Part shown: one piece after another, positions 1,672 through 20,578 of the stretch
How positions within the stretch are numbered: the first letter of the stretch is position 1
Layout of the letters: the number at the start of each line of letters is the position of its first letter
Virus record (IMG/VR): IMGVR_UViG_2740892117_000010
Location: 1 to 21,412 of that record
DNA from: a virus
Lineage: Duplodnaviria > Heunggongvirae > Uroviricota > Caudoviricetes
DNA: 21,412 nucleotides
Strand: one strand, 5' to 3'
The notes under the pieces: generated by a model
What the model saw: only the letters and a program-made list of their open reading frames with translations
Database searches by the model: none
What the model was told of the DNA's origin: nothing
Made by a program: the position numbers and the translations under genes

Positions 1672-1824
1672 ACTCGTGCAGAAGGTGTTCCCCGTCGGGC
1701 TACGGTCATGGTTAATGCGGGAATACAGCGACGATACAGCGCATGATGTGTCAGGCTTGAATACCTTTATCCGTTAAAAGGGATATCAGTTAAGTTATCC
1801 CGTGTAGGGTATAAGCCATTATCA

Positions 1825-3057: not shown

Positions 3058-3120
3058 GGATATTTATCAGGATTTATCGGTTTCTGCCCACGGACAGGTT
3101 TATCTGTTCCGGTCAGTGAC

Positions 3121-3471: not shown

Positions 3472-3475
3472 TGAA

Positions 3476-3691
3476 TTACTCTCCCCGTGCAGCCTTACGC
3501 TTGTCTTCTTTAATCTTGAAATAAAGGTTTGTCAGATACGTCAGCAAGCCAAATACCAGACTACCCAGCACACCTATTGCCGCCCACTGTGAGGGCGTGA
3601 CTTTATCGAGCAACTGTAAAAACCAGTACCCGGCACTACCTGCTGAGGTGCCATAGGCGACACCCGTTGTTAACTTATCCATGGATTTCAT
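3476..3691 (-). CDS. S: Pinholin, phage-21 S type (71-aa antiholin / 68-aa holin dual start)
   Basis: Translation [71 protein letters not shown] is near-identical to S21 as remembered, including the MKSM...MDK dual-start motif. The ORF-track start at 3778 is an upstream extension. Confidence 0.9.
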
Positions 3692-3758
3692 AACCCCACC
3701 TCGCAGATGCGGGTGCTGTGTAATGGAAATAAAAAGGCCACCTGACGTGGCCACCAGA

Positions 3759-4811: not shown

Positions 4812-4961
4812 GGATCAGTAAGCGTAACTCTGGTAGGCTCACTCTGCTTTTGCGCTAAAGCAGTGGGCCGTGGTTCGCTTGTGACCAGTAAGCATGAGCG
4901 AATGGCTGGCAGGTGCTACCAACACCCACCAGCCGCCCATTTTCACAGCAGGAAACCGCCA

Positions 4962-5189
4962 TTACTGGCAGCGTCTGAATTTATTCCCGTACCCGCCGTT
5001 ATCCTTCGCCAGACCCGCCAGAACTAACTGAGTCAGTATTAACTGGCACCGGGCTTCGCTTACTCCGGTAGTTCTCGTCATCATGCGTGGCGTTACCCAC
5101 TTGTCAGCAGGTAAGAAATGAAGGACTGCGGCGGCGGTTTCTGTCATATCTTGCTGTTTTAGCATGTCTTTTTCCCTTCTGGTTAACAT
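4962..5189 (-). CDS. Small hypothetical protein (75 aa; possible start at 5165), first ORF after the late terminator
   Basis: ORF with GAAGGG upstream of the second ATG; C-terminal half looks like a winged-helix segment; function unknown. Confidence 0.4.
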   Translation of the reverse strand: MLTRREKDMLKQQDMTETAAAVLHFLPADKWVTPRMMTRTTGVSEARCQLILTQLVLAGLAKDNGGYGNKFRRCQ

Positions 5190-5283
5190 GACATACCAAT
5201 AACTCTTGTCTAAAAATCCAGCAAGATAAAAAGTCAGTATTCACGACCACCAGCGTGTTTACTGTACTGCACCAAGTTTACAG

Positions 5284-5311
5284 GTACAAAAAACCCGCTC
5301 AGTGGCGGGTT
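5284..5311 (-). terminator. tR-prime-like intrinsic terminator downstream of the late promoter
   Basis: Minus strand reads AACCCGCCACTGAGCGGGTT followed by TTTTTTGT. Confidence 0.7.
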
Positions 5312-5357
5312 CTTAAATCTTATCAACGGTAGACATACAAAGCCCATCGTTGGGGAA

Positions 5358-5386
5358 ATCTTATCCATATTTTTTGAAAAATGCAA
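5358..5386 (-). promoter_or_regulatory. Late promoter (pR-prime-like), presumed Q-engagement region
   Basis: Minus strand TTGCAT - 17 nt - TAAGAT immediately downstream of the Q-like gene stop and about 45 nt upstream of the tR-prime-like hairpin. Confidence 0.6.
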
Positions 5387-5417
5387 GTATCATGTCGTCA
5401 TCTTCGGCGAAAATCAT

Positions 5418-6212
5418 TTATCTTGTCACTTTTCTCAATTGTGTCTCTGCATATGCTTCTTCCTGCCAGCACTTTGTAACCAGTTTATCAATGACATCTG
5501 CATATCCTTTGTACCACTGATAATCCGTCAGATCCGGTACCAGCTTCTGGACATGATGCCGCGCCAGTGTGGTTGGTAAACGGCTAAACCGGTTTCCATT
5601 GCAACGCCCACAAATCTTATAAACAGGCGTGCCATGAAGCCGGGTCCTTTTTTCATCCAGGACAATACCTTTACCCTTACACCCTCTGCACGCTGTGCTG
5701 ACTTCTCCCTTACCATGACAATGCTGACATAGTTCCTTCACCCACTCCTCCTTGATAACAGATTCACCGCTTCTGGAGTGTTTCACCACTTCGCGCAATA
5801 CATTATGAAATCCAGTACCTGCACAATGCTCACAGCGAGCCTTACTTGCCGCAGACCTGGAATAATCAGCAAAGGCAAAATTCACAAGGTAAGGGATGAT
5901 CTGTAACCGGGTTTCTTCACTCAATTTATTCAATGTCGGGTTATCCAGTGCCATCGCGTAATTGAGCAGACCTTCAATCGCAAACTGAGGATCCTGAACA
6001 CCAACTTTTGCCAGGAATAAGGCAAAACCCAGTGGTGCTTTCGACTGCACCATCCCCTGCGCAGCCATTACATCCGTAATTGTTAAACCACCAGAGCCTG
6101 TCGCCGGTGCGTCATCGCTCAATTTTGGAGATTTCGGGGAGTAATATTTCGGTAAGGCTTCAAGGTTCATGCTCGTTCTCCACTTACGCCAGCACGCCAA
6201 TTGCCAGCGCAC
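5418..6212 (-). CDS. Q: Late-gene antiterminator Q (phage-82 / QuuQ-like family)
   Basis: Position directly upstream of the late promoter and terminator; several CxxC zinc-binding pairs (CEHCAGTG, CQHCHGKG, CRGCKGKG, CGRCNG). Start may be the internal ATG at 6170. Confidence 0.7.
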   Translation of the reverse strand: MRWQLACWRKWRTSMNLEALPKYYSPKSPKLSDDAPATGSGGLTITDVMAAQGMVQSKAPLGFALFLAKVGVQDPQFAIEGLLNYAMALDNPTLNKLSEETRLQIIPYLVNFAFADYSRSAASKARCEHCAGTGFHNVLREVVKHSRSGESVIKEEWVKELCQHCHGKGEVSTACRGCKGKGIVLDEKRTRLHGTPVYKICGRCNGNRFSRLPTTLARHHVQKLVPDLTDYQWYKGYADVIDKLVTKCWQEEAYAETQLRKVTR

Positions 6213-7179
6213 GATCGATAAAACGAAATATCAGCTCCAGCTGGGAGCCATACTTCTCTTCAAATGCCACGGTATCCGCATGCAGCTCGTCGTGATGCTT
6301 TCTGCACAAAGGCAACACAAAAAGGTCATGCGCTTTTGTTCCCATTCCACCCTGACCGTGACCTATCAGGTGGTGGGGATCATCAGCGGGCTTTCCACAA
6401 CATGCACACGGCTGTGTCTTAACCCAGCGCGTGTACTTTTCATTAACCCAGCGGCGACGTTTTGGGCGTAACATAAAAGACTCCGGCGACTCCGGATCCA
6501 CTTTCAGCGCCAGCACCTTTTTCGCCTTATCCTGGATGATGCTGGTGGCAGGAACCGAAGGCACAAGGTCACTTTCCCGGGTAACAGACGGCACAACAGG
6601 CTTCGGTAATCTCAGTGCCTTACGGGCTGCACTTTCCGGTAAGGCATCCGCCAGATCATTACGAATCAGCCACCAGCACAGTTCCGGCATTGTCACAACG
6701 TGACTGTCATCAAAACCGAGATCCCGACGCACAACAGACAACACCCAGCGGGCACAGTTATCCGTTGCCATTGATTCCAGCCGTTCCGTGAACTGATCGC
6801 GCAGCTGGTTATCGCAGTGCCAGCACAGACGGATTGCACCCGGAGCGTGTCGCATTGTGGTCATGTTCTCGCTGTGCCAGTCGGAATGAGGCCACTGGCA
6901 GCCTTTTTCACGAAGTAACCAGCTTTCAAGACATTCCACGCCACCAGCACGACGGATCACTGCCTCATTGCGGAACACGGCCCGAACGGCAGGATCATCC
7001 GCCAGCGGTTGTGATGCCGCCGGAACGGCACCACTGGCGAAAGATGAATAACGCTCCGGCTCAGGCTCCAGCAGGACACGCCCCTGCATAAACAGGGGCA
7101 TCAGCTCTGAACCTGGCCTGAACAATACGATCCCCATACGCGGGGCAATTTCAGGGGTCAGTAGTGCTCTCACGGTCAC
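6184..7179 (-). CDS. DUF968 / YdfU-like protein with C-terminal HNH-like motif
   Basis: C-terminal CACCGKPADDPHHLIGHGQGG...CRKHHDELH resembles an HNH/zinc-finger nuclease motif; lies upstream of Q as ydfU does in the Qin prophage (from memory). Confidence 0.65.
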   Translation of the reverse strand: MTVRALLTPEIAPRMGIVLFRPGSELMPLFMQGRVLLEPEPERYSSFASGAVPAASQPLADDPAVRAVFRNEAVIRRAGGVECLESWLLREKGCQWPHSDWHSENMTTMRHAPGAIRLCWHCDNQLRDQFTERLESMATDNCARWVLSVVRRDLGFDDSHVVTMPELCWWLIRNDLADALPESAARKALRLPKPVVPSVTRESDLVPSVPATSIIQDKAKKVLALKVDPESPESFMLRPKRRRWVNEKYTRWVKTQPCACCGKPADDPHHLIGHGQGGMGTKAHDLFVLPLCRKHHDELHADTVAFEEKYGSQLELIFRFIDRALAIGVLA

Positions 7180-7180
7180 C

Positions 7181-7978
7181 TCAATGAACGGTATCGAGCA
7201 GCTTTAACAGCTCAGGGAATCGGGATTCGAAGAAATGCGGCTGCGTCTCGCGCGGATTTGCGGGACTGGTGATGTTCTTGCCGAACATGCAGCCTTTCGC
7301 TGTCAGCGACCAGAATTTTTTGATGTTGTTAATCGCGGTACGGCTGTATCGTTCGCGCTGCTCGACGATCCCCAGCTTCACCATCTGGTGATATGCCTGA
7401 TTAGCTGTCAGGCGGATACCATACTGCTTCAGCAGTGCACTCAGTGACAGCGTGGGGCGGCTTGAGCCATCAGGCGCGTCAGCAGGAGCATCAATGGCAT
7501 AGCGCGGTGCCAGATTCGGTAAGCCAACAGCCTCCTGGAGTTTCTGACAGGCACCAAGCACTGAAGAGTTAGACAGGTTTAATTCCCGGCGCATAAAGTC
7601 CAGCAGAATCACACCAGCCTGCATCTTGTCAGCAGCCTGTCCGGATAATTTTTCCGGTGCGCTGGTTACCATGTCGAAAGTACGGATCACCTTCAGATGG
7701 AATGACGGGCTGATCCACATTGCATAGGCATACACCAGTTCTTTGCAGACATACGTCCCCTGGTTATTTCCGCCACGAATAACGTTAACTGGCTCTATAT
7801 TGACCGAGTTGCAAATCTGCAACTCGCTTATTAAACGTTCAGTTTGCTCATTGCGGAGCCAGAATGCAGGCTTATGCTTATCCAGAGAACCGGCAGCCCT
7901 GTGCAGATCGTTCAGGCTGTAACGACCATAAGCATCACGACGAACTTCAATACCATCAATGACCATCAGATTATTCAT
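7181..7978 (-). CDS. KilA-N domain protein
   Basis: N-terminal IDGIEVRRDAYGRYSLNDLHRAAG...KPAFWLRNEQTERLISEL is characteristic of the KilA-N DNA-binding domain. Confidence 0.7.
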   Translation of the reverse strand: MNNLMVIDGIEVRRDAYGRYSLNDLHRAAGSLDKHKPAFWLRNEQTERLISELQICNSVNIEPVNVIRGGNNQGTYVCKELVYAYAMWISPSFHLKVIRTFDMVTSAPEKLSGQAADKMQAGVILLDFMRRELNLSNSSVLGACQKLQEAVGLPNLAPRYAIDAPADAPDGSSRPTLSLSALLKQYGIRLTANQAYHQMVKLGIVEQRERYSRTAINNIKKFWSLTAKGCMFGKNITSPANPRETQPHFFESRFPELLKLLDTVH

Positions 7979-7997
7979 ACTTCGTTTCTCCTCTTAA

Positions 7998-8387
7998 TCA
8001 GGCGGCTGCACCCGCCGGTTTCTCATACTTACTGATAGTGATCTCGACCTTCCCTTTCGGGATAACCGGTCCCCACTCCACCAGCATTCTTTTCACCTGA
8101 CTGTCGTCTTCCCACACCCCCGCGTGGGTCAGGGCGTCAAACAGCGCCTTGTTATAGTTGTCCAGATCGCGGATCCGGTTATCCGGAGGAAACAACACGA
8201 TCTCCACTGAAGCAGGTGCCGACGTTGGTTTCGGCAGGCGACGTAACTGCTCAACTATTGCTGCGCACGCCGCGCTCTGGAATTTGCGCCCCGCTGCGCT
8301 TATCAGACTCTTACCAGCAAACGCCCCTTTGTTGGGGTGTCGCCAGTACGTGTTCACGCTGGGCGGAAAAGGCAGGATCAGCTTCAT
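7998..8387 (-). CDS. rusA: Holliday junction resolvase RusA
   Basis: Conserved RusA signature (PPSVNTYWRH..., DLDNYNKALFDALTHAGVWEDDSQV). Confidence 0.9.
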   Translation of the reverse strand: MKLILPFPPSVNTYWRHPNKGAFAGKSLISAAGRKFQSAACAAIVEQLRRLPKPTSAPASVEIVLFPPDNRIRDLDNYNKALFDALTHAGVWEDDSQVKRMLVEWGPVIPKGKVEITISKYEKPAGAAA

Positions 8388-8710
8388 ACTTTCAGGCCCC
8401 TCTCATGTAACCAGTGGGCTGCACGCAGCCTGGCGTTTTCCTCACCGGCAAGCAGTGCGCGGATAATCCCGACCGCCTCGCTGTCGTCGTCCTTCACAGC
8501 GGTATGAAGCGTTATCCCCCGTGCCACGCCACGCTTTATCGTGATGACGCCTTTTTTCTCCAGTGCGCGAAGATGCTCCACCGCTGCATTCACCGAACGG
8601 TATCCCAGCATGGTTGCCACCTCCTGATTGGTTGGCGGAAAGCCACGCTCTTTCTGGTAAGAAATCAGCATATCCAGCACCTGCTGCTGGCATTGAGTTA
8701 ACGTCGTCAT
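8384..8710 (-). CDS. LexA N-terminal DNA-binding-domain protein (no peptidase domain)
   Basis: LTQCQQQVLDMLISYQKERGFPPTNQEVATMLGYRSVNAAVEHLRALEKKGVI parallels the LexA N-terminal wHTH as remembered; 108 aa, lacking an S24 domain. Confidence 0.75.
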   Translation of the reverse strand: MTTLTQCQQQVLDMLISYQKERGFPPTNQEVATMLGYRSVNAAVEHLRALEKKGVITIKRGVARGITLHTAVKDDDSEAVGIIRALLAGEENARLRAAHWLHERGLKV

Positions 8711-9360
8711 GCCGCCATCTCCCTGACCAGTTTTTCCGCCTGCTGGCGAACCTGCACCAGAAAGGCTTCACCACATGCCTCAAGTTCATCGCGCCCGATG
8801 TAGCTGATTGCCGGTCCCTTCCAGGTCTTGTCGAAAACAGCAATAGCACCAGCGAAGAAAGCGCCTGTCGGCACCTGCTTCTCATCCTTCGGGATAAACC
8901 AGGCAGGCAGTTCAAAACCAATACGCCCGCGAATAAAAGCAATATGGTCCGCATCTTCCGGCCACCACACTTCGCTGGTGGCAGCTTTGATCAGGAAAAC
9001 ATAGCGCCCGCCCTTATCACGCATGGCACTGGCATGTTTCATGATGTAACGCATGCCGGTGATGTATTGTCCCTCATGCTGACTGGCGCGGCTGTATGGG
9101 GGATTACCAAAGGCAGCACCTTTAAGCTCCGCAAGACGTTCTGACCAGTCATGCGCCAGCGCGTTATCTTCCGCCGTGTAATACGCGGCACATTTGGCGT
9201 TATCACCGTCAGTAAACAGATCCAGAACAAACGGGCCAAACAGGGTGTTAATTCCCCAGAAAATGTTGTCCGGCGTGCGCCACTGATCGCCCACTTCCTT
9301 CAGTTCATGGGCTGGTTTGTTCCGCAGTTCCACCAGCGCCTGGCAATATTTATTACTCAT
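8707..9360 (-). CDS. Phage Dam-like N6-adenine DNA methyltransferase, orphan
   Basis: Contains GNPPYS motif; ATG at 9360 overlaps the upstream stop (TAATG). The ORF-track start at 9393 is a likely extension. Confidence 0.8.
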   Translation of the reverse strand: MSNKYCQALVELRNKPAHELKEVGDQWRTPDNIFWGINTLFGPFVLDLFTDGDNAKCAAYYTAEDNALAHDWSERLAELKGAAFGNPPYSRASQHEGQYITGMRYIMKHASAMRDKGGRYVFLIKAATSEVWWPEDADHIAFIRGRIGFELPAWFIPKDEKQVPTGAFFAGAIAVFDKTWKGPAISYIGRDELEACGEAFLVQVRQQAEKLVREMAA

Positions 9361-9854
9361 TAAGCCCCCACGTAATTCCCTGACAGATACCACTCTTCAC
9401 CCGATGCAGCGCGCTTGCTGCTTTTCCGTAAACACCGCTCACGACGCGCAAGAAAATTGTTTCGCTCTTGCTGGGAGTGGCTTTCACGGAATGCCGCCAT
9501 CCACACCGTTGCAGCACGACGGTATAAGCCCCTGGACTCCAGTTCTTCCGCCTGGCGGGTCAGGCATAAAATCACCCGGGGATCGTTAGTGCCGACATAG
9601 AAATTGCGCACAGATCTGGTTTCTCGAACTGGTTGTGGTTCCGGTTCCTGCGCTCTCTCAGTCAGGCGCGGAAAATGTCTGCGTGTATCTCCTTCACAAC
9701 GGTGAGCCACACGCCCACTCTGACGTAACTTGCTTGCAGACTGCAGAACGCGCTGCCGTGAGTAACCTGCAAAAGCATCCGCAATGTCTCCGGAAGTACA
9801 CCCCGGATGGGCTTCAATGAATTTCTGAACGTCATTCAAAAGACTCATGATCAC
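9360..9854 (-). CDS. PerC-like transcriptional regulator (putative)
   Basis: C-terminal GLYRRAATVWMAAF resembles the PerC-family motif; N-terminal half looks wHTH-like; start overlaps the O stop (ATGA). Confidence 0.5.
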   Translation of the reverse strand: MIMSLLNDVQKFIEAHPGCTSGDIADAFAGYSRQRVLQSASKLRQSGRVAHRCEGDTRRHFPRLTERAQEPEPQPVRETRSVRNFYVGTNDPRVILCLTRQAEELESRGLYRRAATVWMAAFRESHSQQERNNFLARRERCLRKSSKRAASGEEWYLSGNYVGA

Positions 9855-10792
9855 CCCCTGAATCCTGCCGGGATCTGGCTGTAGTCCACGTTGTCGTAAC
9901 TGGATTTGAAGTACGGGTCTTCGCGTTTTTCGGTGTACGTGCTGACGGACGGCGATAAGCGCAGGGAAAGCTCATCCCATTTTTCCCGCAACTTCGACGG
10001 GCTGAGCACGTTACGGCACCAGAACGGATCGCGGCTGACGCGGCTGTACATCTCGCAGATTTGTTTGTGAGTACGACCATCCTGCACACACATCAGGCGA
10101 ATTTCGTTTGCCCAGGCTGTCCAGTTCGGTTCTTTGGGACGAACCACCTCGCCGTCACATTCGGCGGCTTGCTCGTACAGGGCGATGATTTTTTTCCAGA
10201 GCCACTGTGCGCAGGTCAAATCATCCTGCGTTCCCCACTGGCGCTTTTTAGGGCTGAATACAACCGCATCAGGATGGCGAGTTAAAAAATCCTGTTCATC
10301 CGTCTGCGTGTCCGGTTGCGAAGCGTCCGGACGAGAAGGTTTTTTATCTGACGGATCATGTTTTGATTTTACTGACGGATCCCCGCCAGATTCTGACGGG
10401 TGAAAACCCGCTTTTTTGCCAGATTTCGACGCATCAAATTTTGACGGGTCAGATTTTGATGCGTCAGATTTTGACTGGTCAGAATCTGACAGTTGAGAAA
10501 ATGCCGCTGCCTGAAGCTTCGCAACGTTAAGCTGATAAACATTCGACGCATTGCGGTTACCCTGGCGACGCGCCTTACGCGTTAACCAGCCTTCTGCTTC
10601 CAGCCGTGCGATAGCCGTTCTGACGGTACTCATCCCCGCGCCAATCTGACGGGCAATGGTTTCAATTGATGGCCAGCACACACCTTCGTCATTACTGAAA
10701 TCAGCCAGGCGGGCCATAATTGCCACGCTGGATAATTTCATGCCTGATGCAGCGCAACCATCCCATACATAGCCGGTTAATTTAGTGCTCAT
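9851..10792 (-). CDS. Replication initiator, O-like (N-terminal HTH, Ser/Lys/Asp-rich linker encoded by ori iterons)
   Basis: N-terminal wHTH typical of phage replication initiators; ATG at 10792 with GAGG Shine-Dalgarno; iterons within the coding sequence as in lambda O. Confidence 0.8.
   Translation of the reverse strand: MSTKLTGYVWDGCAASGMKLSSVAIMARLADFSNDEGVCWPSIETIARQIGAGMSTVRTAIARLEAEGWLTRKARRQGNRNASNVYQLNVAKLQAAAFSQLSDSDQSKSDASKSDPSKFDASKSGKKAGFHPSESGGDPSVKSKHDPSDKKPSRPDASQPDTQTDEQDFLTRHPDAVVFSPKKRQWGTQDDLTCAQWLWKKIIALYEQAAECDGEVVRPKEPNWTAWANEIRLMCVQDGRTHKQICEMYSRVSRDPFWCRNVLSPSKLREKWDELSLRLSPSVSTYTEKREDPYFKSSYDNVDYSQIPAGFRG
10350..10495. repeat. Origin iterons (about 7 copies of a 12-bp unit, tCAGATTTTGAC-like) inside the O-like gene
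   Basis: Direct repeats ccagattctgac, ccagatttcgac, tcaaattttgac, tcagattttgat, tcagattttgac, tcagaatctgac at roughly 15-bp spacing. Confidence 0.8.
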
Positions 10793-10801
10793 GACCGACC
10801 T

Positions 10802-11140
10802 CTACTTCCCTGAATTTACGACGAAACTGTTCGAGCGGGCTGAAGCACTCATGCTCATAGCCTTCGCGGAGGTAGATAACCCGTTGTGTTTCCGGCTCCC
10901 AACGAATGACTCTGACGGGCACTCCGTAGTGATCTTTGAACCAGCGGTTAACTTGTCGCAAAGGACTGTCTCCTTCTGCCGGTTGAAATCACCCACAGCC
11001 CACTCTGCAAAGCTGTGGGTTACAATTTCCCTGTCACCTGGTACATTTACTGCATAGCAATACTCCACCTTCGCTTTTCCACCCGGTACAGGAAGTGCAA
11101 TCAGTTGCGAGCGACGGTAGTGTGTTGTTAAACTGTTCAT
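10802..11140 (-). CDS. Small hypothetical protein between the cII-position gene and O; frame uncertain in its 3' half
   Basis: ATG at 11140 overlaps the upstream stop (ATGA). The C-terminal half is Ser-rich and low-complexity, while an alternative frame over 10795-10990 reads protein-like ([52 protein letters not shown]). Confidence 0.35.
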
Positions 11141-11706
11141 GCGTTAGTTTCTCCACAACCAGAAGCAATCGACGCCACGACGCCCGGAGCTGCACACTCG
11201 CGGGCGTCATTACTTTCTGAAATGCAAAAAATTTTGTAGACAAGTGCTGCATGCTCCTGCAGCTTCGAAATTGAGAGATACAGCTCGTCGTTAATTGCTG
11301 TCTTCTCATGCGGTTCCACTACACCGTCTTCGATTGCTGAACGAATCTGTTTTGAATAACTGCCGATCTGTTCAATGACTTCCAGCAGACGCTGGTTAAT
11401 ATCGGCGTTGTCCACATCCTCGACGTCAGGAAGAGACACAAAGACGCCATTTGCAGACTGCGCCACAGCATCAGCAATGAAGTGAGTTCCACCAGCACGT
11501 TGCAAAATCATTGCCCATCCCAGCGGGAAAATCTGATCGCCATCAGCACGAAGGCGGTTAAATAATGCGTTCTCTGTTACATCCAGCCAGTCAGCTGCTT
11601 CAGCGTAACCACCCGGCAACTTTGCGATAGTTTTTCTGACAGCTTTCACGTACCACTCAGGCTGTTTTTCTACTTTCCAGTGATGCTTACCCACGGTTAG
11701 CCTCAT
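11137..11706 (-). CDS. Hypothetical early-operon protein at the cII position (start uncertain: 11706, 11748, 11760 or 11808)
   Basis: ORF immediately downstream of cro on the pR-side operon; no motif I can assign; a GTG with GAGG Shine-Dalgarno lies just after the first in-frame candidate. Confidence 0.5.
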
Positions 11707-11731
11707 CGTTCTGTGGTTTCTGTTAATCGAT

Positions 11732-11932
11732 TTATCCATTAGATTTTTCATAAAGCTCAGGTTTAAATGGCAACCGTCCGCAAGTTCTATATGCAGCTTC
11801 TGCTGCACGTCCTTTTGGAATTAACTGGCCCGGACGGTTTCGCCACTGATAAACGGCTTCAGTTGTTATGCCGAAAAAAGCAGCAACTTTCTCAATACTG
11901 CCGAAGTAGCTTTCGATATCGTCAGTTGTCAT
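11732..11932 (-). CDS. cro: Cro-like HTH repressor
   Basis: 66-aa HTH protein divergently transcribed from cI; FFGITTEAVYQWRNRPGQLIP is HTH-like. Confidence 0.75.
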   Translation of the reverse strand: MTTDDIESYFGSIEKVAAFFGITTEAVYQWRNRPGQLIPKGRAAEAAYRTCGRLPFKPELYEKSNG

Positions 11933-12029
11933 ACGCCCTCCAAACTAAGTTTTATTAGATGCTAATTACAAATCTATCTTTGGTCAATAAAAACTAAGAT
12001 TACTTAGCAATTCAAGAAATGGTGCTCCT
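11933..12029. promoter_or_regulatory. Right operator region (pR / pRM with operator half-sites)
   Basis: Divergent cI-cro intergenic region with AACTAAG motifs at 11944 and 11992 and the inverted pair ACTAAGATTACTTAG. Confidence 0.55.
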
Positions 12030-12656
12030 ATGGAAACGGTTGGTCAGCGTATAAAAGCTCTGAGAAGAGTTACCAGAACGTCCCAGAAAGAATTGGGTAA
12101 ATTTTGTGGAGTAAGCGACGTTGCTGTGGGGTACTGGGAGAAAGACATCAATACCCCTGGTGGGGAGGCACTTTCGAAATTAGCGAAGTTCTTCAATACG
12201 TCAATAGATTACATTCTTTATGGTGCTGAGTTTGAAGGCAAACTCGTCACAAACATGCGCAGAGTTCCTGTAATATCGTGGGTTCAGGCTGGGCAGTTTA
12301 CTGAGTGCAGGGCAGCAGAAGTGTTTAGTGAAGTGGACAAGTGGGTAGATACATCATTAAAGATTGGTGATAACTCATTTGCATTAGAGGTTAAAGGTGA
12401 CTCCATGACTAACCCTAATGGCCTCCCAACAATACCAGAAGGCGCAACAGTGATTGTAGATCCAGATGCAGAACCTCGTCATGGAAAAATAGTCATCGCT
12501 CGACTTGATGGAACAAACGAAGCTACAGTAAAAAAATTAGTCATCGATGGCCCTCAAAAGTTTTTAGTGCCATTAAATCCTCGGTATCCCAACATCCCTA
12601 TCAATGGTAATTGCCTTATCATTGGTGTAGTCAAAGGAGTTCAATACGAACTCTAA
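12030..12656 (+). CDS. cI: CI-type prophage repressor (HTH-XRE N-terminal domain + LexA-like S24 peptidase domain)
   Basis: N-terminal HTH (QKELGKFCGVSDVAVGYWEKD); C-terminal S24 signatures (KGDSM serine motif, catalytic Lys region VKKLV). Confidence 0.9.
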   Translation: METVGQRIKALRRVTRTSQKELGKFCGVSDVAVGYWEKDINTPGGEALSKLAKFFNTSIDYILYGAEFEGKLVTNMRRVPVISWVQAGQFTECRAAEVFSEVDKWVDTSLKIGDNSFALEVKGDSMTNPNGLPTIPEGATVIVDPDAEPRHGKIVIARLDGTNEATVKKLVIDGPQKFLVPLNPRYPNIPINGNCLIIGVVKGVQYEL

Positions 12657-12840
12657 GACCTCTCTTCTCTAACTAAGGCACCGAACTAAGAAAAGTTTGG
12701 TGTTTTCTCTTGCCATAATAACTAAGTTAAGTTAGATTTTATGTCAAAGATAACGAACAGGCAGGACGCCCACGAAGTAGCCGCCGGTGGCGTATGAATG
12801 ACCGGATGATTCGTTAAATACTATGTGTAAGAGAGCGCAA
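12657..12840 (+). promoter_or_regulatory. Left operator / pL-like promoter region
   Basis: TTGCCA (12709-12714) - 17 nt - TAGATT (12732-12737); AACTAAG motifs at 12670, 12683 and 12719, matching those in the cI-cro intergenic region. Confidence 0.5.
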
Positions 12841-13043
12841 ATGAACCGTTATTTCACATGCTCGTTTTGTGGCGCAAACGAGCTGCAGGCAAAAAAATCA
12901 TCGCCAAAGGCGGAAAAGATGAAGTTGCTATCTGCTCTGAGTGCGTAGTCTTGTGTGTCGGAGCATTAATCAATATCAGCACAACTATTCAGTTCACACC
13001 AAATGAGAATGCGCCTTTAGATGCGCGGAAATCTGGAGGTTAA
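12841..13043 (+). CDS. ClpX-type C4 zinc-finger small protein, reading frame broken at an A7 run (12891-12897)
   Basis: Frame 1 from ATG 12841 gives MNRYFTCSFCGANELQAKK; frame 3 continues IIAKGGKDEVAICSECVVLCVGAL. Together they recreate the ClpX N-terminal zinc-binding motif (CSFCG ... ICxECVxLC). One extra A would give a single ~67-aa ORF. Confidence 0.6.
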
Positions 13044-13051
13044 AGAACAAA

Positions 13052-13327
13052 ATGAAAGTCCAGATTTTAAACAATAGTGGTGAAGTCGTTTGGTCATACG
13101 ACATAGCCGCTCCTGTAGATCAGAGCGGCGATAGCTGGACCAATGGGAAACATCAGATTATGGCTGGAGTTGTATTCTCTTTACACCGTGCTTTGGAACA
13201 GGCTGAAGTATTTCCATCAGACCCTGAATGGAAATGGCCTTTTTCTATTTGTCCAAATTCGGAGAGCACATTTCAGAAAATTGGTCAGAAAGTCGCACTC
13301 GAAGAGCATCAGCCAACTGTTTTCTGA
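13052..13327 (+). CDS. Hypothetical protein (91 aa)
   Basis: ATG at 13052 with GGAGG 13 nt upstream; 3' end overlaps a convergent ORF, so the C-terminus is uncertain. Confidence 0.45.
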   Translation: MKVQILNNSGEVVWSYDIAAPVDQSGDSWTNGKHQIMAGVVFSLHRALEQAEVFPSDPEWKWPFSICPNSESTFQKIGQKVALEEHQPTVF

Positions 13328-13490
13328 TTTTTTCAGGTAACTCGTCGGCATCGCAGAAACAACAACGCTCGATCATGTTGAAAGCCGATTCGTAGAACTG
13401 TTTCTGCTGAGTGTCGCTGAGACAGGAAAAGAGCGACGTTACGATGATTTTATTAATTGCATTATCAAGTTCTTTTTCATCAAAAGTCAT
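13245..13490 (-). CDS. Hypothetical protein (81 aa)
   Basis: ATG at 13490 with AAGGA Shine-Dalgarno; helical, charged composition; convergent with the 13052 ORF. Confidence 0.45.
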   Translation of the reverse strand: MTFDEKELDNAINKIIVTSLFSCLSDTQQKQFYESAFNMIERCCFCDADELPEKIRKQLADALRVRLSDQFSEMCSPNLDK

Positions 13491-13743
13491 TTGATTTTCC
13501 TTTTATGTATACGGGCTTAAAAGGATACCACCGAGCCTGAAGTGGTGAAAAGACAGGCACATAACAGCTAAGTATTTTCAACCAGAGAGAATCCTTAGCG
13601 TTGTGGTGAATGCGGCTCAGCGCACGCGGGTTAAGGTTGAGGCTGACAGTCGACCTTCTGTGGATACCCACCCGTCTGGTGTGCAACCTTCGCCAGGCAC
13701 CGGGAGGCACCCGGCACCACAACTTTATGCTGTGTGTAGTCCT

Positions 13744-13790
13744 GGCGGTACCAGTTTGTACCCTTGCTTCCGGCTGGTACCGCTCTTTTT
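13744..13790 (+). terminator. Strong intrinsic terminator (10-bp GC-rich stem + TCTTTTT) in the pL-side operon
   Basis: GGCGGTACCAG ... CTGGTACCGC followed by TCTTTTT. Confidence 0.65.
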
Positions 13791-13927
13791 ACAAAACAGA
13801 GAAGAGCATCACCGGACGACGGGCTCATAACCCAATCCATCCGGGCGGCTGCCACCGCAGGTGTTCTTCTCTGTTTTGTGGAGAAACCAACCGACCTTGC
13901 AGGGTCGATATGATGAGGAGCAGCAAA

Positions 13928-14290
13928 ATGGCTAGCGAACGCAGTACTGATGTGCAGGCATTTATCGGGGAGCTGGACGGCGGCGTATTTGAAACCAAAA
14001 TCGGCGCAGTTCTCAGTGAAGTCGCTTCCGGTGTGATGAACACGAAAACCAAAGGTAAGGTCTCGCTCAACCTGGAAATCGAACCGTTTGATGAGAACCG
14101 TGTGAAAATAAAACATAAACTCTCATATGTTCGCCCGACTAACCGCGGGAAAATTTCCGAAGAAGACACCACCGAAACACCGATGTATGTCAATCGCGGT
14201 GGTCGCCTGACTATTCTGCAGGAAGACCAGGGACAATTACTGACTCTTGCCGGTGAACCTGACGGAAAACTCCGCGCAGCAGGTCATTAA
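13928..14290 (+). CDS. yfdP: YfdP-like protein (120 aa)
   Basis: ATG at 13928 with GAGGAG Shine-Dalgarno; length and position upstream of a YfdQ-like gene match the CPS-53 yfdPQRST module as remembered. The ORF-track N-terminal extension reads as junk. Confidence 0.65.
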   Translation: MASERSTDVQAFIGELDGGVFETKIGAVLSEVASGVMNTKTKGKVSLNLEIEPFDENRVKIKHKLSYVRPTNRGKISEEDTTETPMYVNRGGRLTILQEDQGQLLTLAGEPDGKLRAAGH

Positions 14291-14354
14291 TATCGTTTTT
14301 AATTAACTGATTATTTATCTCATCACTGAATATTTTATATAGTGAGGACTGATT

Positions 14355-15179
14355 ATGTCTCAGAACTTAGACGCAACCGCAATTAATCAAATCCATGCCC
14401 TTATTTCTGCTCAGGGTGTTAATGAAATTATCAGTAAGATTGGTGCCGATGCTGTGGCATTGCCTGAGAATTTCCGCATTCATGATCTGGAAAAATTTAA
14501 TTTAAATCGCTTCCGTTTCCGTGGTGCGCTTTCCACTGCCAGCATCGATGACTTTACCCGTTATTCTAAAGATCTTGCAGATGAAGGCACCCGCTGCTTT
14601 ATCGATGCTGATAATATGCGTGCCGTCAGTGTGCTTAACCTGGGTACTATTGATGAACCAGGTCACGCAGATAACACCGCCACTCTCAAACTGAAAAAGA
14701 CAGCACCGTTCTCTGCCCTGTTGTCTGTTAACGGCGAGCGTAACTCCCAGAAGTCACTGGCAGAATGGATTGAAGACTGGGCCGACTACCTTGTGGGCTT
14801 TGATGCTAATGGTGACGCCATTCAGGCAACCAAAGCTGCTGCGGCGATCCGTAAAATCACAATTGAAGCGAACCAGACCGCTGATTTTGAAGATAATGAC
14901 TTCAGCGGCAAACGCTCCCTGATGGAGTCTGTCGAAGCGAAGACCAAAGACATTATGCCTGTGGCATTTGAATTTAAATGCGTTCCGTTTGAAGGTCTGA
15001 AAGAACGTCCGTTTAAATTACGCCTCAGCATTATCACTGGCGATCGTCCTGTACTGGTTCTGCGCATTATTCAGCTGGAAGCGGTGCAGGAAGAAATGGC
15101 TAACGAATTTCGTGATCTGCTTGTTGAGAAATTCAAAGACAGCAAAGTAGAAACCTTTATTGGTACTTTCACCGCCTGA
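14355..15179 (+). CDS. yfdQ: YfdQ-like DUF2303 protein (274 aa)
   Basis: Length and synteny with the CPS-53 module; clean ORF with Shine-Dalgarno. Confidence 0.7.
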
Positions 15180-15306
15180 TTTCATTACTGCAAATGCCCC
15201 TGCGGGGGCATTTATGGAAACGTAATTAACTCAATAATCACCGGATGGTGAGGGCTTCCTTTTACCAGAATTCAGCGCGGTGCAGTGCATATACGTGGAG
15301 AATAAA

Positions 15307-15843
15307 ATGTCATTTATTAAAACTTTTTCCGGGAAGCATTTTTATTATGACAAGATAAATAAAGACGACATCGATATTAACGATATCGCGGTTTCCCTTT
15401 CAAATATCTGTCGCTTTGCCGGTCATCTTTCGCACTTCTACAGCGTCGCCCAACATGCGGTTCTTTGCAGCATGCTGGTGCCGCAGGAATTTGCTTTTGA
15501 AGCGTTAATGCATGATGCAACAGAAGCGTATTGCCAGGACATCCCGGCTCCACTGAAACGCCTTCTTCCTGACTATAAACGGATGGAAGAAAAAATAGAC
15601 GCCGTAATCCGTGAGAAATACGGGTTACCCCCGGTTATGAGCACGCCCGTGAAATATGCCGATCTCATCATGCTGGCAACCGAACGCCGCGATCTCGGGC
15701 TTGATGATGGCTCTTTCTGGCCTGTACTGGAAGGTATCCCGGCAACAGAGATGTTCAAAGTGATTCCACTGTCGCCAGGCCATGCCTATGGGATGTTTAT
15801 GGAACGTTTTAACGAGTTATCGGAGTTACGCAAATGCGCATGA
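15307..15843 (+). CDS. yfdR: YfdR-like HD-domain protein (178 aa; putative 5'-deoxynucleotidase)
   Basis: ATG at 15307 with GGAG Shine-Dalgarno; H..HD-like metal motif (ALMHDATEAY); length matches YfdR. Confidence 0.7.
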   Translation: MSFIKTFSGKHFYYDKINKDDIDINDIAVSLSNICRFAGHLSHFYSVAQHAVLCSMLVPQEFAFEALMHDATEAYCQDIPAPLKRLLPDYKRMEEKIDAVIREKYGLPPVMSTPVKYADLIMLATERRDLGLDDGSFWPVLEGIPATEMFKVIPLSPGHAYGMFMERFNELSELRKCA

Positions 15844-16196
15844 ATGTTTTCGAAATGGAAGGGTTTCTTCGCGGGAAATGTGTACCGCGAGATCTGAAAG
15901 TGAACGAAACAAATGCTGAGTACCTAGTACGTAAATTCGACGCGCTTGAAGCTAAATGTGCGGCACTGGAAAACAAAATAATACCAGTGTCAGCTGAACT
16001 GCCACCTGCAAATGAAAGTGTTCTGTTATTTGATGCTAACGGAGAAGGCTGGCTAATTGGCTGGCGTTCTCTCTGGTACACCTGGGGACAAAAAGAAACC
16101 GGAGAATGGCAGTGGACATTTCAGGTCGGGGACCTTGAAAACGTCAATATCACTCACTGGGCAGTAATGCCGAAAGCACCGGAGAATAAGAAATGA
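15834..16196 (+). CDS. yfdS: YfdS-like protein (120 aa)
   Basis: Overlaps the yfdR-like stop; length and synteny match YfdS. Confidence 0.65.
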   Translation: MRMNVFEMEGFLRGKCVPRDLKVNETNAEYLVRKFDALEAKCAALENKIIPVSAELPPANESVLLFDANGEGWLIGWRSLWYTWGQKETGEWQWTFQVGDLENVNITHWAVMPKAPENKK

Positions 16197-16408
16197 GCGT
16201 GATAAAAACTCATACAGGAATTGTTATTACCCGAAACGGTCCGCAGGTAAAAAAACTGCACCAGACAAAGCGGATGTGGGTCGTCGGAGAAAACGAGTTT
16301 TACCACAAAGAAACCGGACGCCGCCACTTTGCAGAAAATACGCGCCGCCGACTGCTCCTGGACAGCATCAGGCCAATTAAACAGGTAGCAACCAGAGAAC
16401 AAAATTAA
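16193..16408 (+). CDS. Small hypothetical protein (71 aa)
   Basis: ATGA overlap with the upstream gene; basic small protein. Confidence 0.5.
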   Translation: MSVIKTHTGIVITRNGPQVKKLHQTKRMWVVGENEFYHKETGRRHFAENTRRRLLLDSIRPIKQVATREQN

Positions 16409-16469: not shown

Positions 16470-16679
16470 ATGGCAAAACTAATGAAAGCGAGCCAATGGG
16501 GACGCCGTGAATTCTCTAATGGCTCAATTCCTGACAACCGAACGATAAAACGCTGGGTCGAGAACGGTCTGCTCATGGGGCGTATAGTGGACGGTTCTGT
16601 TTTTGTCTGCGAAACAGAAAAATGGGGAGTCGACTCAATGGTTAGTCAAGCTGTTCGCAAGTTAATAAATGAGGGATGA
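16470..16679 (+). CDS. xis: Excisionase (lambda Xis-like)
   Basis: About 69-aa basic protein with a TIKRWVENG...DGSVFVCE pattern like lambda Xis (RRWVRE...DGREYLF); stop overlaps the int start (ATGA). Confidence 0.7.
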   Translation: MAKLMKASQWGRREFSNGSIPDNRTIKRWVENGLLMGRIVDGSVFVCETEKWGVDSMVSQAVRKLINEG

Positions 16680-17860
16680 CCATGGCGGCAAGGCCACGTA
16701 AAAAAGAATACAGACATCTTCCTGATTATCTGGTTTTTGATAAAGATCGAGGTGTTTATAAATTCACACTTATTACCGGAAAAAAGAAAAATATAGGTAA
16801 GGATCGGGCAATAGCCGTTGCAATCGCCAGAGAGTACAACCTGAGGATGCGATCAGAATTATACCCATCAGTGGATAATCTTATTAGAGAATCTGGCGGG
16901 GTCACCGGAGAAGCAAAACCATTTGCTGAACATGTCGATCACATAATGGCCAGAATTATCGAAGACGAACGACCTTCCCAGAGTACCTTAGATGACTGGA
17001 AAAATGACGCTCTACGCGTAAAAGCATTTTTCGTAAATGTTCCGGCATGCGATATCGAACTTGAACACGTTAATGCCTACATCAACAAATATCATGCCAG
17101 CGCATCCGCAAATGTGCAGAACAGAAAGGTCAGCTTTCTTAAAAAGTTGTTCTCTTATGCGGTCGATGAATCACTAATGCAGGATAACCCGGCCATCAGA
17201 AAAAAAATGCGTAGGACTGATGAGAAGAAAAGACGGCGCCTGTCACTCGAGCATTTTATAGCTATCAGGCAGGCCGCTGCACCATGGTTAAGAACAGCAA
17301 TGGACCTAGCATTGCAGACTACACATGCACGACTCGAAGTATCGCGAATCCGTTACTCAATTCGCGAACCTAAAGACGGTTTATGTGGATGTGTTTGGTT
17401 CGAACAACCACAAAATGGCATATATGGTACACTATACATCCATAGGCAAAAAGTACAAAAAAAGGAGGCATCACATGTTGCAATACCAATTGGTGAAGAA
17501 TTGAAACGGATAATTGACAATAGCCGTGACAATGTGGCCAGTCCCTTTGTCGTTCATAGAATCCCAGAACGGCATGTTAAACGCAGTAAAGAGGTTTCGC
17601 ACCCAACTCAAGTTGCACCAGATTATTTGAGTCGGTCATTCTCTTCCGTGCGAGACAAACTCGGACTATGCAATCATCTAGCAATGGAACAAAGACCTAC
17701 ATTCCATGAAATAAGAGCTTTGGCAGCTCACCTATTTGATAAACAAGGGATTGATCCGCAGGGACGAATGGCACATAGCGATGCGAAATCTACTAAAATT
17801 TATACTAAAAATCATATAGATTGGATTGTTGTCCCTCATGGAGAAATTAAAACCGGTTAG
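16676..17860 (+). CDS. int: Tyrosine integrase, lambda Int family
   Basis: N-terminal arm-binding-like region; C-terminal catalytic region parallels lambda Int (PTFHEIRALAAHLF vs PTFHELRSLSARLY, then H...Y). Confidence 0.9.
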   Translation: MTMAARPRKKEYRHLPDYLVFDKDRGVYKFTLITGKKKNIGKDRAIAVAIAREYNLRMRSELYPSVDNLIRESGGVTGEAKPFAEHVDHIMARIIEDERPSQSTLDDWKNDALRVKAFFVNVPACDIELEHVNAYINKYHASASANVQNRKVSFLKKLFSYAVDESLMQDNPAIRKKMRRTDEKKRRRLSLEHFIAIRQAAAPWLRTAMDLALQTTHARLEVSRIRYSIREPKDGLCGCVWFEQPQNGIYGTLYIHRQKVQKKEASHVAIPIGEELKRIIDNSRDNVASPFVVHRIPERHVKRSKEVSHPTQVAPDYLSRSFSSVRDKLGLCNHLAMEQRPTFHEIRALAAHLFDKQGIDPQGRMAHSDAKSTKIYTKNHIDWIVVPHGEIKTG

Positions 17861-17997: not shown

Positions 17998-18954
17998 TTA
18001 TTTACCCTTATTATACTCTTCAGTAATCTTATTCATGGATGATATATATTTATCCAGCCCACCATAGTTGGCTATCATTCGAAATGAATTACGGTACTCT
18101 GCCATTTTCACATCATGATTAGTAATTCCACACCAGCCACAAACTTTATTTTCCATGTTTAAAGGCTCATAACATTTTTTACATTGCCTTGATGCAGGTA
18201 TTATATTGCCATTAATAAATTGGTGTGATTTGAGATTTTGAGATAAAAGAAATGGTGTAGTTGTTGTTTTTCCTATTACCATTTCGAAATATCTACATTT
18301 AGCCTTTTTAGCTAAAGATTGAATTTTCTGCTTTAATAAATCATTTGATTTGTGCCCAACTATAACTCCAGTTATACAATTAATCGGTACCGGAAGGAGC
18401 ATAAGATTGTCATTCAGTTTAGTAAGTGCTTTCTCATTAATTATTACGCGACGTTCCTGCTCATAACTCCAGCAAGTTTGTTTTGTCAAATATGCGGCTG
18501 TCATTATACAGGATTGTAGCCAGTAGATATAACGAGGTTTACAGATATGAAATGCTCTCGCCAGAATGTCTTCAATACCTGTATCTGGAGAATCTTTATA
18601 TTCAACATCTGCTATTGAACTATGATCCTGGAAGCCGATTTCATCCAAATACTTTTTAAACTTCTCCTCATTAATCTCTATTACAAAACCAGAAGAATTA
18701 CCTGCATAATGTGCCCACATAGGTGGTATCACAGGGCTTTTCGTAAAACAAGTTGCTGGTTGTTTTGTAACCATGCCAATCATTTCATTGTAAAATGCTA
18801 ACTCATCAGAACCGCGATTAAAATCAATAGTAAGGAAAAACTCATAGGGATCATTATATTCATGTAAATGAGAGAATTTTATTCCTATATGTGTTTCATC
18901 CATCATCAATTTATCAATTATATCCGCTCCCATAAACTTATACAAATTGGTCAT
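17998..18954 (-). CDS. DUF2971-like protein with C-terminal CxxC...CxxC zinc ribbon; AT-rich cargo gene
   Basis: ATG at 18954 with AAGGAG Shine-Dalgarno; N-terminal NLYKF...FSHLHEYNDPYEF resembles the DUF2971 signature as remembered; C-terminal CKKCYEPLNMENKVCGWCG; markedly AT-rich versus flanks. Confidence 0.6.
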   Translation of the reverse strand: MTNLYKFMGADIIDKLMMDETHIGIKFSHLHEYNDPYEFFLTIDFNRGSDELAFYNEMIGMVTKQPATCFTKSPVIPPMWAHYAGNSSGFVIEINEEKFKKYLDEIGFQDHSSIADVEYKDSPDTGIEDILARAFHICKPRYIYWLQSCIMTAAYLTKQTCWSYEQERRVIINEKALTKLNDNLMLLPVPINCITGVIVGHKSNDLLKQKIQSLAKKAKCRYFEMVIGKTTTTPFLLSQNLKSHQFINGNIIPASRQCKKCYEPLNMENKVCGWCGITNHDVKMAEYRNSFRMIANYGGLDKYISSMNKITEEYNKGK

Positions 18955-19050
18955 ATACAACTCCTTTTTTATAAAATAACATTTTAAATCATATGATTAT
19001 GGAGGCACAAAATCCAGTAATTAGTTTTCAAGCCGGTTGTGATGTAGTTC

Positions 19051-19437: not shown

Positions 19438-19821
19438 TTAGGACGCTTTAGACTTGGTCATATTAGCGCAACGCTGGATTAATTTCTCTGCAGTCTTAAT
19501 CGCGGTGCTTGATTGGGTTGGCGTAATAGTGTCGTTAAGTCTGTAATCACAAACTATTCTCTGATCCTTAAGCGATTGAAGAGCATACCCCAAACCAATT
19601 AAGTCTCTTTTTTCAAAAGGTTCGTTACCCTTCCAAGCATCGTTAACAAGATAGTCAATGAGGCCTTGGTGACTTTCTTTCGGCCCCATGGTCAAACACG
19701 GAAGTACGTGGTGATAAGCACCATAATACGCACGTGCGACAGCGTTTCTGTAACCAATTTCGTCGTTACGCTTTTCACAATCTTTTGCGAAAGCGATAAA
19801 ATCGGAACTATTAACTGGCAC
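19438..19821 (-). CDS. Hypothetical protein (127 aa from GTG 19821; 144 aa if TTG 19872), possible HEPN-like helical fold
   Basis: GTG at 19821 with GGAGGA 8 nt upstream, overlapping the upstream stop; RAYYGAYHH has R-x6-H spacing but family assignment is speculative. Confidence 0.55.
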   Translation of the reverse strand: MPVNSSDFIAFAKDCEKRNDEIGYRNAVARAYYGAYHHVLPCLTMGPKESHQGLIDYLVNDAWKGNEPFEKRDLIGLGYALQSLKDQRIVCDYRLNDTITPTQSSTAIKTAEKLIQRCANMTKSKAS

Positions 19822-20578
19822 GCGCAGGTTCCTCCAAACGCCCTTCAAACCATACGCTGAAGGGTTTTCCAATCAAACTTTCATTTTCTGCAAGAGAAAA
19901 TGCTATATCCAAGTTCATATCAGAGAGAACATCAGAATCTTCAGTATTAACTGCCATGACATATGATGACGTACGCTCTTCAGGGATAGAGCAGAAAGAC
20001 ATAGCAACAGGACTAACTTTATGGTCAGCCATGATATCCACTATGCGGTTTGCAATATCCTGTAGTTCTTCATCAGTAATTCCAGTTGCACTTTTGAAGG
20101 TCGTGGATTGGGCCAGTGCTGTGGCTGCGAGGTGCTTAACCAATTCAGCCTCCTTTTCATCTACCATACTTATCAATCTCTCAGCATAGTAGAGCGCTTT
20201 GTCAATACGCCCCAAGAACAAGTTAGCTTCCCATGCATGGGACAGCATCGTAGGGGAGTTATAACGTTCAACTAATCGATTTACCACTTGTTCAACTTCA
20301 CGGAAGCTGCCGTAATCGTTGAGATAAACTACATAATTTTGAGCAATGATCAGGTTGTTATGCTTCAATGCTTCTTCAAAGAATGCAACTGCAGTATCTT
20401 TACGCCCAAAAGCACCATTAGCCAACGCTTTGAGATAGTCCTCAGATGCGCTGTCGCGCAACTTTTCTATATCTCTGATATAACGAAAATATTGCATTTC
20501 GGATATCGTATTCCGAGCCGCAAGAATATCGATTAATTCACTGCTGATTTCGTTCGCTTTTAGCGCCGGCTGTGGCAT
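19811..20578 (-). CDS. Hypothetical alpha-helical protein (255 aa), first gene of a two-gene operon
   Basis: ATG at 20578 with AAAGGTGA Shine-Dalgarno; TPR-like helical composition by eye; no catalytic motif recognised. Confidence 0.6.
   Translation of the reverse strand: MPQPALKANEISSELIDILAARNTISEMQYFRYIRDIEKLRDSASEDYLKALANGAFGRKDTAVAFFEEALKHNNLIIAQNYVVYLNDYGSFREVEQVVNRLVERYNSPTMLSHAWEANLFLGRIDKALYYAERLISMVDEKEAELVKHLAATALAQSTTFKSATGITDEELQDIANRIVDIMADHKVSPVAMSFCSIPEERTSSYVMAVNTEDSDVLSDMNLDIAFSLAENESLIGKPFSVWFEGRLEEPARAS

Follow-up and report, generated by a model that had tools for sequence, protein, structure and literature searches.

Identity of the cluster

The viral sequence analysed here (IMG/VR record IMGVR_UViG_2740892117_000010, positions 1 to 21,412; the window, 21,412 nucleotides long) is a lambdoid prophage. 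Its minus strand carries cro, a cII-like gene, an O-like replication gene with iterons, nin-region genes, Q and the lysis genes, and its plus strand carries, in this order, a cI-type repressor gene, the gene cluster that is the subject of this work, an xis-like open reading frame (ORF) and int. The cluster is composed of yfdP (13928-14290, 120 amino acids, aa), yfdQ (14355-15179, 274 aa), yfdR (15307-15843, 178 aa, starting at an internal ATG at 15307 within the ORF 15280-15843), yfdS (15834-16196, 120 aa) and a 71-aa ORF (16193-16408; orf71), all on the plus strand. Given the lambda layout of the window, this position falls in the early-left region. An initial annotation, made from the sequence alone, had noticed four or five co-directional ORFs here, including an HD-domain protein, whose lengths of 120, 274, 178 and 120 aa and whose order matched the yfdP-Q-R-S genes of prophage CPS-53, and had proposed alignment to the proteins of Escherichia coli K-12 as a check. 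In a BLASTP comparison of the translated proteins with the CPS-53 region of E. coli K-12 MG1655 (NC_000913), identities were 99.2% for YfdP (E 5e-89), 99.6% for YfdQ (E 0), 97.2% for YfdR (E 4e-134) and 100% over 117 of 120 aa for YfdS (E 6e-89), with the same lengths and order in both. At the DNA level, window 13909-16184 is 97.4% identical to K-12 over 2277 bp. This orthology signal is far above chance, and the four genes were thus correctly recognised. The fifth, orf71, stands in the place of yfdT/ypdJ and is not yfdT: it has no similarity to K-12 YfdT or YpdJ (BLASTP), it matches phrog_1226 (6e-40), and relatives recur 3' of yfdS or yfdR in 19 loci of the 240-locus neighbour survey described below.

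It is nearly certain that the genes form the yfdP-yfdQ-yfdR-yfdS accessory cluster of an SfV/CPS-53-type lambdoid prophage in its native early-left position between cI and xis-int. The cluster is already known. A 3.2-kb stretch is 100% identical in the chromosomes of several E. coli strains, including ST131, where the NCBI annotation pipeline (PGAP) names the genes in the identical DNA yfdP, yfdQ, yfdR (5'-deoxynucleotidase) and yfdS; the block is matched in 3107 of 5426 complete E. coli genomes (57%), and a link with DnaA was published in 2016.

The CPS-53 (KplE1) prophage of K-12 shares with the window the four orthologous genes, their order, lengths and overlaps, but differs on both sides of them. 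Downstream it has yfdT, ypdJ and torI, with intS at the other end, whereas in the window orf71, the xis-like ORF and int follow directly, the last two unrelated to K-12 TorI/torI and IntS/intS (BLASTP). Upstream, CPS-53 lacks the DNA corresponding to window 10560-13908, which holds the N-terminal part of the replication gene, the cII-like gene, cro, cI, pL, a small RNA (sRNA) element, a terminator and a leader hairpin. Another counterpart is Shigella phage SfV orf32-orf29 (also in SfIV, mEp460 and Stx2c phages). Here a temperate phage that is functional has the block, at 97-98% DNA identity, in the same place, with cI on one side and xis/int on the other. SfV and the window also have in common the upstream orf33, the sRNA-like region and the leader, while SfV differs in having a yfdT homologue (orf28) next, another xis/int and another immunity region. 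The xis-like ORF of the window (16470-16679, plus strand, 69 aa) is a putative excisionase gene by position and by a weak match to the helix-turn-helix (HTH) of DUF4817; it fitted no excisionase family in Pfam and PHROG scans. The tyrosine integrase gene (16682-17860, plus strand) encodes a lambda-type arm-binding domain (PF09003, 25.5 bits, cut-off 22) and matches phrog_1 (2e-29).

Protein families

YfdQ belongs to the DUF2303 family, matching PF10065 with 311.4 bits (cut-off 26.6) over model positions 2-269 of 269. YfdP belongs to its family by similarity to YfdP and by its location directly upstream of yfdQ; it matches phrog_204 (1e-49), and its assignment to PF27127 comes from precomputed annotation of homologues, the local Pfam copy having no model for it. 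The YfdQ family is large, with 1835 clusters at 50% identity. In a profile search of 1.84 billion representatives the best 150 matches were nearly all 249-302 aa long, apart from a few shorter fragments, and none of these 150 carried a domain fusion hinting at function. A homologue has been solved as PDB 9o7m ('YfdQ Protein', 36 chains in one entry; E 8e-45 over residues 16-273). It is nearest in sequence to ORF37 of Xanthomonas phage CP2 and, though likewise a DUF2303 protein, has about 40% identity to the window YfdQ, a rough estimate from the alignment. A literature search on the code 9O7M found no paper, and DUF2303 appears in the literature only in annotation lists. AlphaFold models of YfdQ and YfdP reached mean confidence (pLDDT) values of 77 and 80, the latter with one long helix and a three-stranded sheet; neither had meaningful neighbours in a Foldseek PDB library that did not include entry 9o7m.

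YfdR has the metal-binding residues of HD-domain enzymes (H50, H69-D70 and a downstream YAD, the H...HD...D pattern), as the initial annotation had seen, and its five substitutions relative to K-12 all lie outside them. It matches phrog_318 (3e-110), labelled 'deoxyribonucleoside 5' monophosphate phosphatase', and the HD protein PDB 2gz4 (5e-14). YfdS has a C-terminal DUF551 domain (PF04448) scoring 22.2 bits, marginally above the cut-off of 22. NCBIfam gave no match for any cluster protein.

The yfdP-yfdQ pair and its leader

To see which of these genes keep company elsewhere, 240 loci with YfdQ relatives were collected from IMG/VR, from one genome per species of GTDB and from phage records, and their neighbours were scored by iterated profile searches. 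An IMG/VR scan with the YfdQ alignment gave near-identical loci only, and distant homologues were therefore used as separate queries. In 233 of the 240 loci the gene immediately upstream of that for YfdQ encodes a YfdP homologue. The pair ranges over phages of Enterobacterales, Pseudomonas, Vibrio and Xanthomonas, and the YfdP homologues of the last three are similar by direct comparison (E 1e-19 to 1e-24). The downstream genes are patchier. YfdR follows in 76/80 E. coli-type loci, 59/80 GTDB species representatives (adjacent in 54), 15/51 Pseudomonas-type, 0/20 Vibrio-type and 0/4 Xanthomonas-type loci, and the corresponding figures for YfdS are 60/80, 6/80, 1/51, 0/20 and 0/4. Thus, YfdR is a frequent addition to the pair, and YfdS a sporadic one that is almost confined to E. 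coli-type loci.

The layout of the window points in the same direction. Gaps of 64 nucleotides (nt) and 127 nt separate yfdP from yfdQ and yfdQ from yfdR, and yfdR, yfdS and orf71 overlap one another (yfdR-yfdS by 10 nt, yfdS-orf71 by 4 nt). Past the yfdQ stop there is a GC-rich hairpin (15192-15213, plus strand, -16.5 kcal/mol, z -2.9) with a poor U tract, which may be a weak terminator or a stabiliser and may separate a yfdPQ transcript from yfdR-S. Because of the P-Q pairing, the patchy presence of YfdR and YfdS, the hairpin 3' of yfdQ and the overlaps among yfdR, yfdS and orf71, we regard the cluster as composite, with yfdP-yfdQ as one unit and yfdR-yfdS-orf71 as another, added on.

The pair also has a leader of its own. 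A long hairpin (13787-13883, plus strand, about 97 nt) with a stem of at least 24 bp and the flanks UUUUACAC / GUGUGGAG folds at -51 kcal/mol (z -8.25), and it is followed by a small GC hairpin and then by the Shine-Dalgarno sequence and start codon of yfdP. In 17 species-level loci (Leclercia, Serratia, Yersinia, Kosakonia, Xenorhabdus and others) the outer 24 pairs of the stem are standard in 94.4% of cases, as against 70.8% in shuffles (reached in 0/500), and 17 of the 24 pairs have compensatory changes on both sides. Slid registers gave 34-62% pairing. The arms had been excised and the register picked for maximal pairing, the conserved flanks fixing the register in most sequences; given a plain MAFFT alignment, RNAalifold found no more of the stem than its base, and an end-anchored alignment of both arms was needed. 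As there are U-G pairs at positions 1, 3, 4 and 23, only the plus-strand RNA can form the stem. When a stem was counted as present if at least 21 of the 24 pairs formed, ungapped and within 260 nt upstream of yfdP, it was found in 80/80 E. coli-type loci, 49/77 GTDB species representatives, 20/50 Pseudomonas-type loci and 0/22 Vibrio- or Xanthomonas-type loci, and in 0/235 shuffled controls. Rfam holds no family for this hairpin. A perfect duplex of two helical turns suggests processing by RNase III, and the hairpin may be a control element of that type.

The prominence of the pair bears on an explanation in which the cluster, and above all yfdP-yfdQ, serves the replication or recombination of the phage's own DNA, for instance at intermediates or DNA ends, the effect on DnaA being a side effect of overexpression. 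The P-Q core conserved in the survey is in keeping with it, as is the 36-chain assembly of the YfdQ homologue. Moreover, distant phages hold the pair in replication or recombination modules: among 64 non-redundant loci the recurrent neighbours were ERF annealase (9), YqaJ exonuclease (8), DnaQ-like 3'-5' exonuclease (8) and SSB (5), besides cI-type repressors (22) and integrases (9). The explanation also draws on the prophage itself, which has many Chi sites and no recognisable Rec module; Pfam and PHROG scans for Red-beta, Erf, Sak4, RecT, Exo, YqaJ, Gam and Abc2 matched no ORF between cI and int. We nevertheless consider it somewhat unlikely as an account of the whole cluster. A narrower version, YfdP-YfdQ as a stand-in for the missing recombinase, is weakened by the ERF and YqaJ genes that adjoin the pair in other phages. 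In this our neighbour analysis agrees with PMC12315714, in which a recombinase role was judged unlikely on the ground that the family also occurs in phages whose Rec module is complete. As to the Chi sites (GCTGGTGG), there are 14 within window 692-11489, 11 on the minus strand and 3 on the plus strand, all in the early-right/late part and none past 11.5 kb; a window with many Chi sites and no recognisable Rec module fits the Chi-rich, Rec-less lambdoid class of that paper.

Candidate promoter and the region upstream of yfdP

The repressor gene (12030-12656, plus strand) encodes HTH_3 and Peptidase_S24 domains (PF01381, 1e-9; PF00717, 9e-28) and is named 'LexA family protein' by PGAP. A promoter scan placed a candidate site, TTGCCA-17-TAGATT, at 12710-12738, 54 nt past the cI stop, with a predicted -10 element at 12733-12738. 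It is overlapped by the operator-like motif ACTAAG-N5-TTAG at 12721-12735, and a second copy with one mismatch lies at 12685-12699. Its only other occurrences are in the cI/cro intergenic region (11944 and 11993; region 11944-12008), a candidate OR. In the whole window there are 5 matches against 0.86 expected, a number reached in 0/100 shuffles. We infer that 12685-12738 (plus strand) is pL/OL. The cluster would then be pL-type in position, on the cI strand and downstream of a predicted promoter with overlapping repressor operators.

Several elements lie between this promoter and yfdP. The first ORF, similar to the ClpX zinc finger (12823-13043, plus strand, 73 aa when intact), is frameshifted at an A7 run (12888-12894). 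The repaired protein matches PF06689 with 41.3 bits (cut-off 27), and four of five related loci carry A8 and an intact ORF. The A7 run is also an A_AAA_AAA slippery heptamer, at which a -1 slip would restore the frame. From 13050 onward the window is 98.3% identical to SfV DNA. It includes the homologue of SfV orf33 (13052-13327, plus strand, 91 aa; phrog_3195, 1e-62) and an 81-aa ORF on the minus strand (13245-13490; phrog_3311, 1e-55; annotated by PGAP), which interrupts the co-directional run. These two ORFs overlap convergently over 83 nt (13245-13327) and, as both have strong PHROG matches, both may be real.

Further on there is an element resembling the prophage sRNA STnc100/PasD (13570-13792, plus strand), with a full-length match to Rfam RF02076 at 44.6 bits, a little under the gathering score of 47 (E 6e-8); the Rfam scan gave no other match. 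STnc100 and PasD have been described as related prophage sRNAs (bioRxiv 10.64898/2026.05.13.724894). The element ends in an intrinsic terminator (13744-13791), a 13-bp GC-rich hairpin (stem 13744-13784, -21 kcal/mol) followed by UCUUUUU, about 140 nt upstream of yfdP. No conserved ORF was found in 13570-13792, where 41 related loci differ by 1-nt indels. The PGAP reading of 13603-13913 as a decayed gene ('frameshifted hypothetical protein') was set aside for the same reason, there being no consistent ORF in the 41 loci, and the stretch is read as non-coding. The rho-independent terminator annotated in SfV (corresponding to window 13478-13510) was not supported either, folding at only -2.3 kcal/mol (z +0.4).

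The placement given by the initial annotation, embedded in the pL operon upstream of xis-int, holds as far as position goes: the cluster is on the cI strand, with a pL-like promoter that bears operators upstream of it and the xis-like ORF and int downstream; the operon and its early timing are read from position. Early expression of the cluster from pL is plausible but unproven, and simple co-transcription from pL is in doubt because the convergent gene, the sRNA with its terminator and the leader hairpin intervene.

Expression is central to another explanation, in which the genes are cargo of benefit to the lysogen, expressed in the prophage state and acting in host tolerance of oxidative or acid stress rather than in lytic growth. 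As quoted second-hand in PMC4776307, deletion of CPS-53, or of yfdQ or yfdS alone, raises sensitivity to H2O2. Growing K-12 cells contain detectable yfdPQ mRNA, which responds to SrsR (PMC9181523), and the cluster has been retained in the decayed CPS-53. However, K-12 expression stems from a deletion junction without immunity region, terminator or leader and so says little on the intact prophage, intact phages place the genes behind a terminator and a promoter predicted to be under repressor control, and the family is frequent among Vibrio and Xanthomonas phages whose genomes look lytic. We consider such a role improbable. The stretch missing from K-12 starts at 10560, inside the replication gene, and the iterons lie at 10434-10489. 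Four 'SrsR boxes' have been reported in the K-12 yfdO/yfdP 'spacer' (PMC9181523); since their counterparts in the window are the four 15-bp-spaced iterons inside the O-like replication gene, which is intact here (313 aa), the boxes are probably relics of the phage origin.

The link with DnaA

The connection with replication initiation, which the initial annotation had named, is indeed published. CPS-53 DNA was isolated for its ability to suppress hda-185 overinitiation in multicopy (Noguchi and Katayama 2016, PMC4776307). The minimal inhibiting set was yfdQ and yfdR together with yfdS or yfdT, and extra copies inhibited initiation both in several mutants and in the wild type. In purified form, YfdR bound DnaA in a way that depended on Phe46 of domain I and was a moderate competitor of DiaA and DnaB; in vitro, oriC replication was inhibited by extracts that contained YfdQRST in excess. 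As a speculation, the authors suggested that the ancestral phage used the genes much as lambda uses P, and they named SfV ORFs 29-31 as homologues (all in PMC4776307). The window carries the minimal set, with yfdQ, yfdR and yfdS intact and yfdT absent.

On this basis a course of events can be proposed for the window, drawn from the 97-100% aa identity of the K-12 orthologues, the presence of the minimal set and the intact HD residues. Inactivation of the repressor would allow transcription from the cI-controlled pL-like promoter, and the transcript would have to pass the intrinsic terminator and the structured leader before reaching the cluster. YfdR, an HD-domain 5'-deoxynucleotidase, would then bind DnaA domain I at the Phe46 surface in competition with DiaA and DnaB and, with YfdQ and YfdS as helpers, would lower initiation at host oriC, which would favour phage over host replication. 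The yfdP-yfdQ pair, older, widespread and with its own conserved leader, would probably have a separate role in phage DNA metabolism. We therefore put forward, tentatively and at somewhat less than even confidence, an early-left accessory cluster in which YfdR can damp host initiation via DnaA domain I and is joined to an older yfdP-yfdQ pair with its own structured leader. In SfV and mEp460, both functional phages, the block is found in the same place, and the pL/OL candidate shares its operator motifs with the cI/cro region, both of which are in favour of this proposal.

A number of observations weigh against it. All functional evidence for a host effect comes from K-12 genes in multicopy or overexpressed, and the authors themselves allowed that the effect might be an overexpression artefact. 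Deletion of yfdQRST left both initiation and hydroxyurea resistance unchanged, YfdQ, YfdS and YfdT bound tightly neither to YfdR nor to DnaA, and yfdP was dispensable for the inhibition (all in PMC4776307). In the window the convergent 81-aa gene and the intrinsic terminator sit between pL and yfdP, and family scans (Pfam, PHROG, NCBIfam) of the ORFs between cI and yfdP recognised no N-like antiterminator. In addition, YfdR reaches 22.9 bits against the YfbR-like family of Pfam (PF12917), under the gathering threshold of 25.9; its class is supported instead by the 97.2% identity to the characterised K-12 protein and by phrog_318. Hence the early host-takeover module of the initial annotation survives in part: the published DnaA link and the presence of the minimal set speak for it, and the deletion without effect, the overexpression evidence and the terminator before yfdP speak against it. 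Since yfdP, dispensable in the DnaA assay, belongs to the conserved pair, a native role of the pair outside that assay is suggested, and the native role of at least half of the cluster is probably other than the DnaA effect.

The enzymatic nature of YfdR raises the question of whether it acts mainly as a deoxyribonucleoside monophosphate phosphatase that reshapes nucleotide pools during phage growth, its neighbours being unrelated cargo. The intact HD motif, the phrog_318 and PGAP names and the likeness to 2gz4 would suit this, but the sole functional assay requires yfdQ and yfdS or yfdT beside YfdR, and many P-Q loci lack YfdR altogether; we think it unlikely. The housekeeping 5'-deoxynucleotidase of E. 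coli, YfbR, has the HD motif and general fold family in common with YfdR, together with the weak Pfam match. It differs in that this match is under the cut-off, that the substrate affinity reported for YfdR is much lower, and that YfdR is phage-borne and binds DnaA.

The role proposed for YfdR has parallels in lambda P and in SirA of Bacillus subtilis, each a small accessory protein that binds DnaA and lowers oriC initiation, SirA doing so with a residue equivalent to Phe46. Neither is related to YfdR in sequence or fold. Lambda P, moreover, binds DnaA domain III and is itself a helicase loader, while YfdR is an HD phosphohydrolase that needs partner genes.

Taken further, the composite nature of the cluster leads to a view in which the functional unit is not yfdPQRS but yfdP-yfdQ with its covarying leader RNA. 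This would be an ancient, autonomous phage module acting in an undescribed step of DNA metabolism, with YfdQ as a large homo-oligomer and with expression gated post-transcriptionally by the terminator and the long RNase III-type hairpin; the YfdR-DnaA effect would be a later addition. It is a real possibility, to which we give somewhat less than even weight.

The region beyond int and defence

PADLOC found no defence family among seven proteins tested, the five of the cluster and those of the two upstream ORFs, in line with the initial annotation, which had read the module as something other than defence. Defence and exclusion genes are frequent in accessory regions of prophages, and HD domains occur in some defence proteins, so that an anti-phage defence or superinfection-exclusion system might be considered. 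Yet besides the lack of PADLOC matches, the genes are outside the usual positions of lysogen-expressed cargo, and the sole defence-like match in the window is a DUF2971 gene past int (17998-18960, minus strand), of low GC content (0.33), matching the candidate defence system PDC-S31 (4e-22). We regard a defensive role of the cluster as very improbable. The DUF2971 gene has as neighbours an integrase fragment, a small ORF and a TPR protein (including 19438-20578, minus strand), and the region is probably an islet in its own right at the attachment site.

Conclusions

The window shows the yfdPQRS cluster in an intact prophage. K-12 has lost the immunity region, promoter, sRNA, terminator and leader, and because of this loss its expression data miss the native control of these genes. 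If the proposed mechanism is true, lambdoid phages would have a second, lambda-P-independent way to silence the host initiator. The yfdP-yfdQ pair with its leader hairpin is among the larger uncharacterised phage families, and it is the part of the cluster that merits experimental attention.

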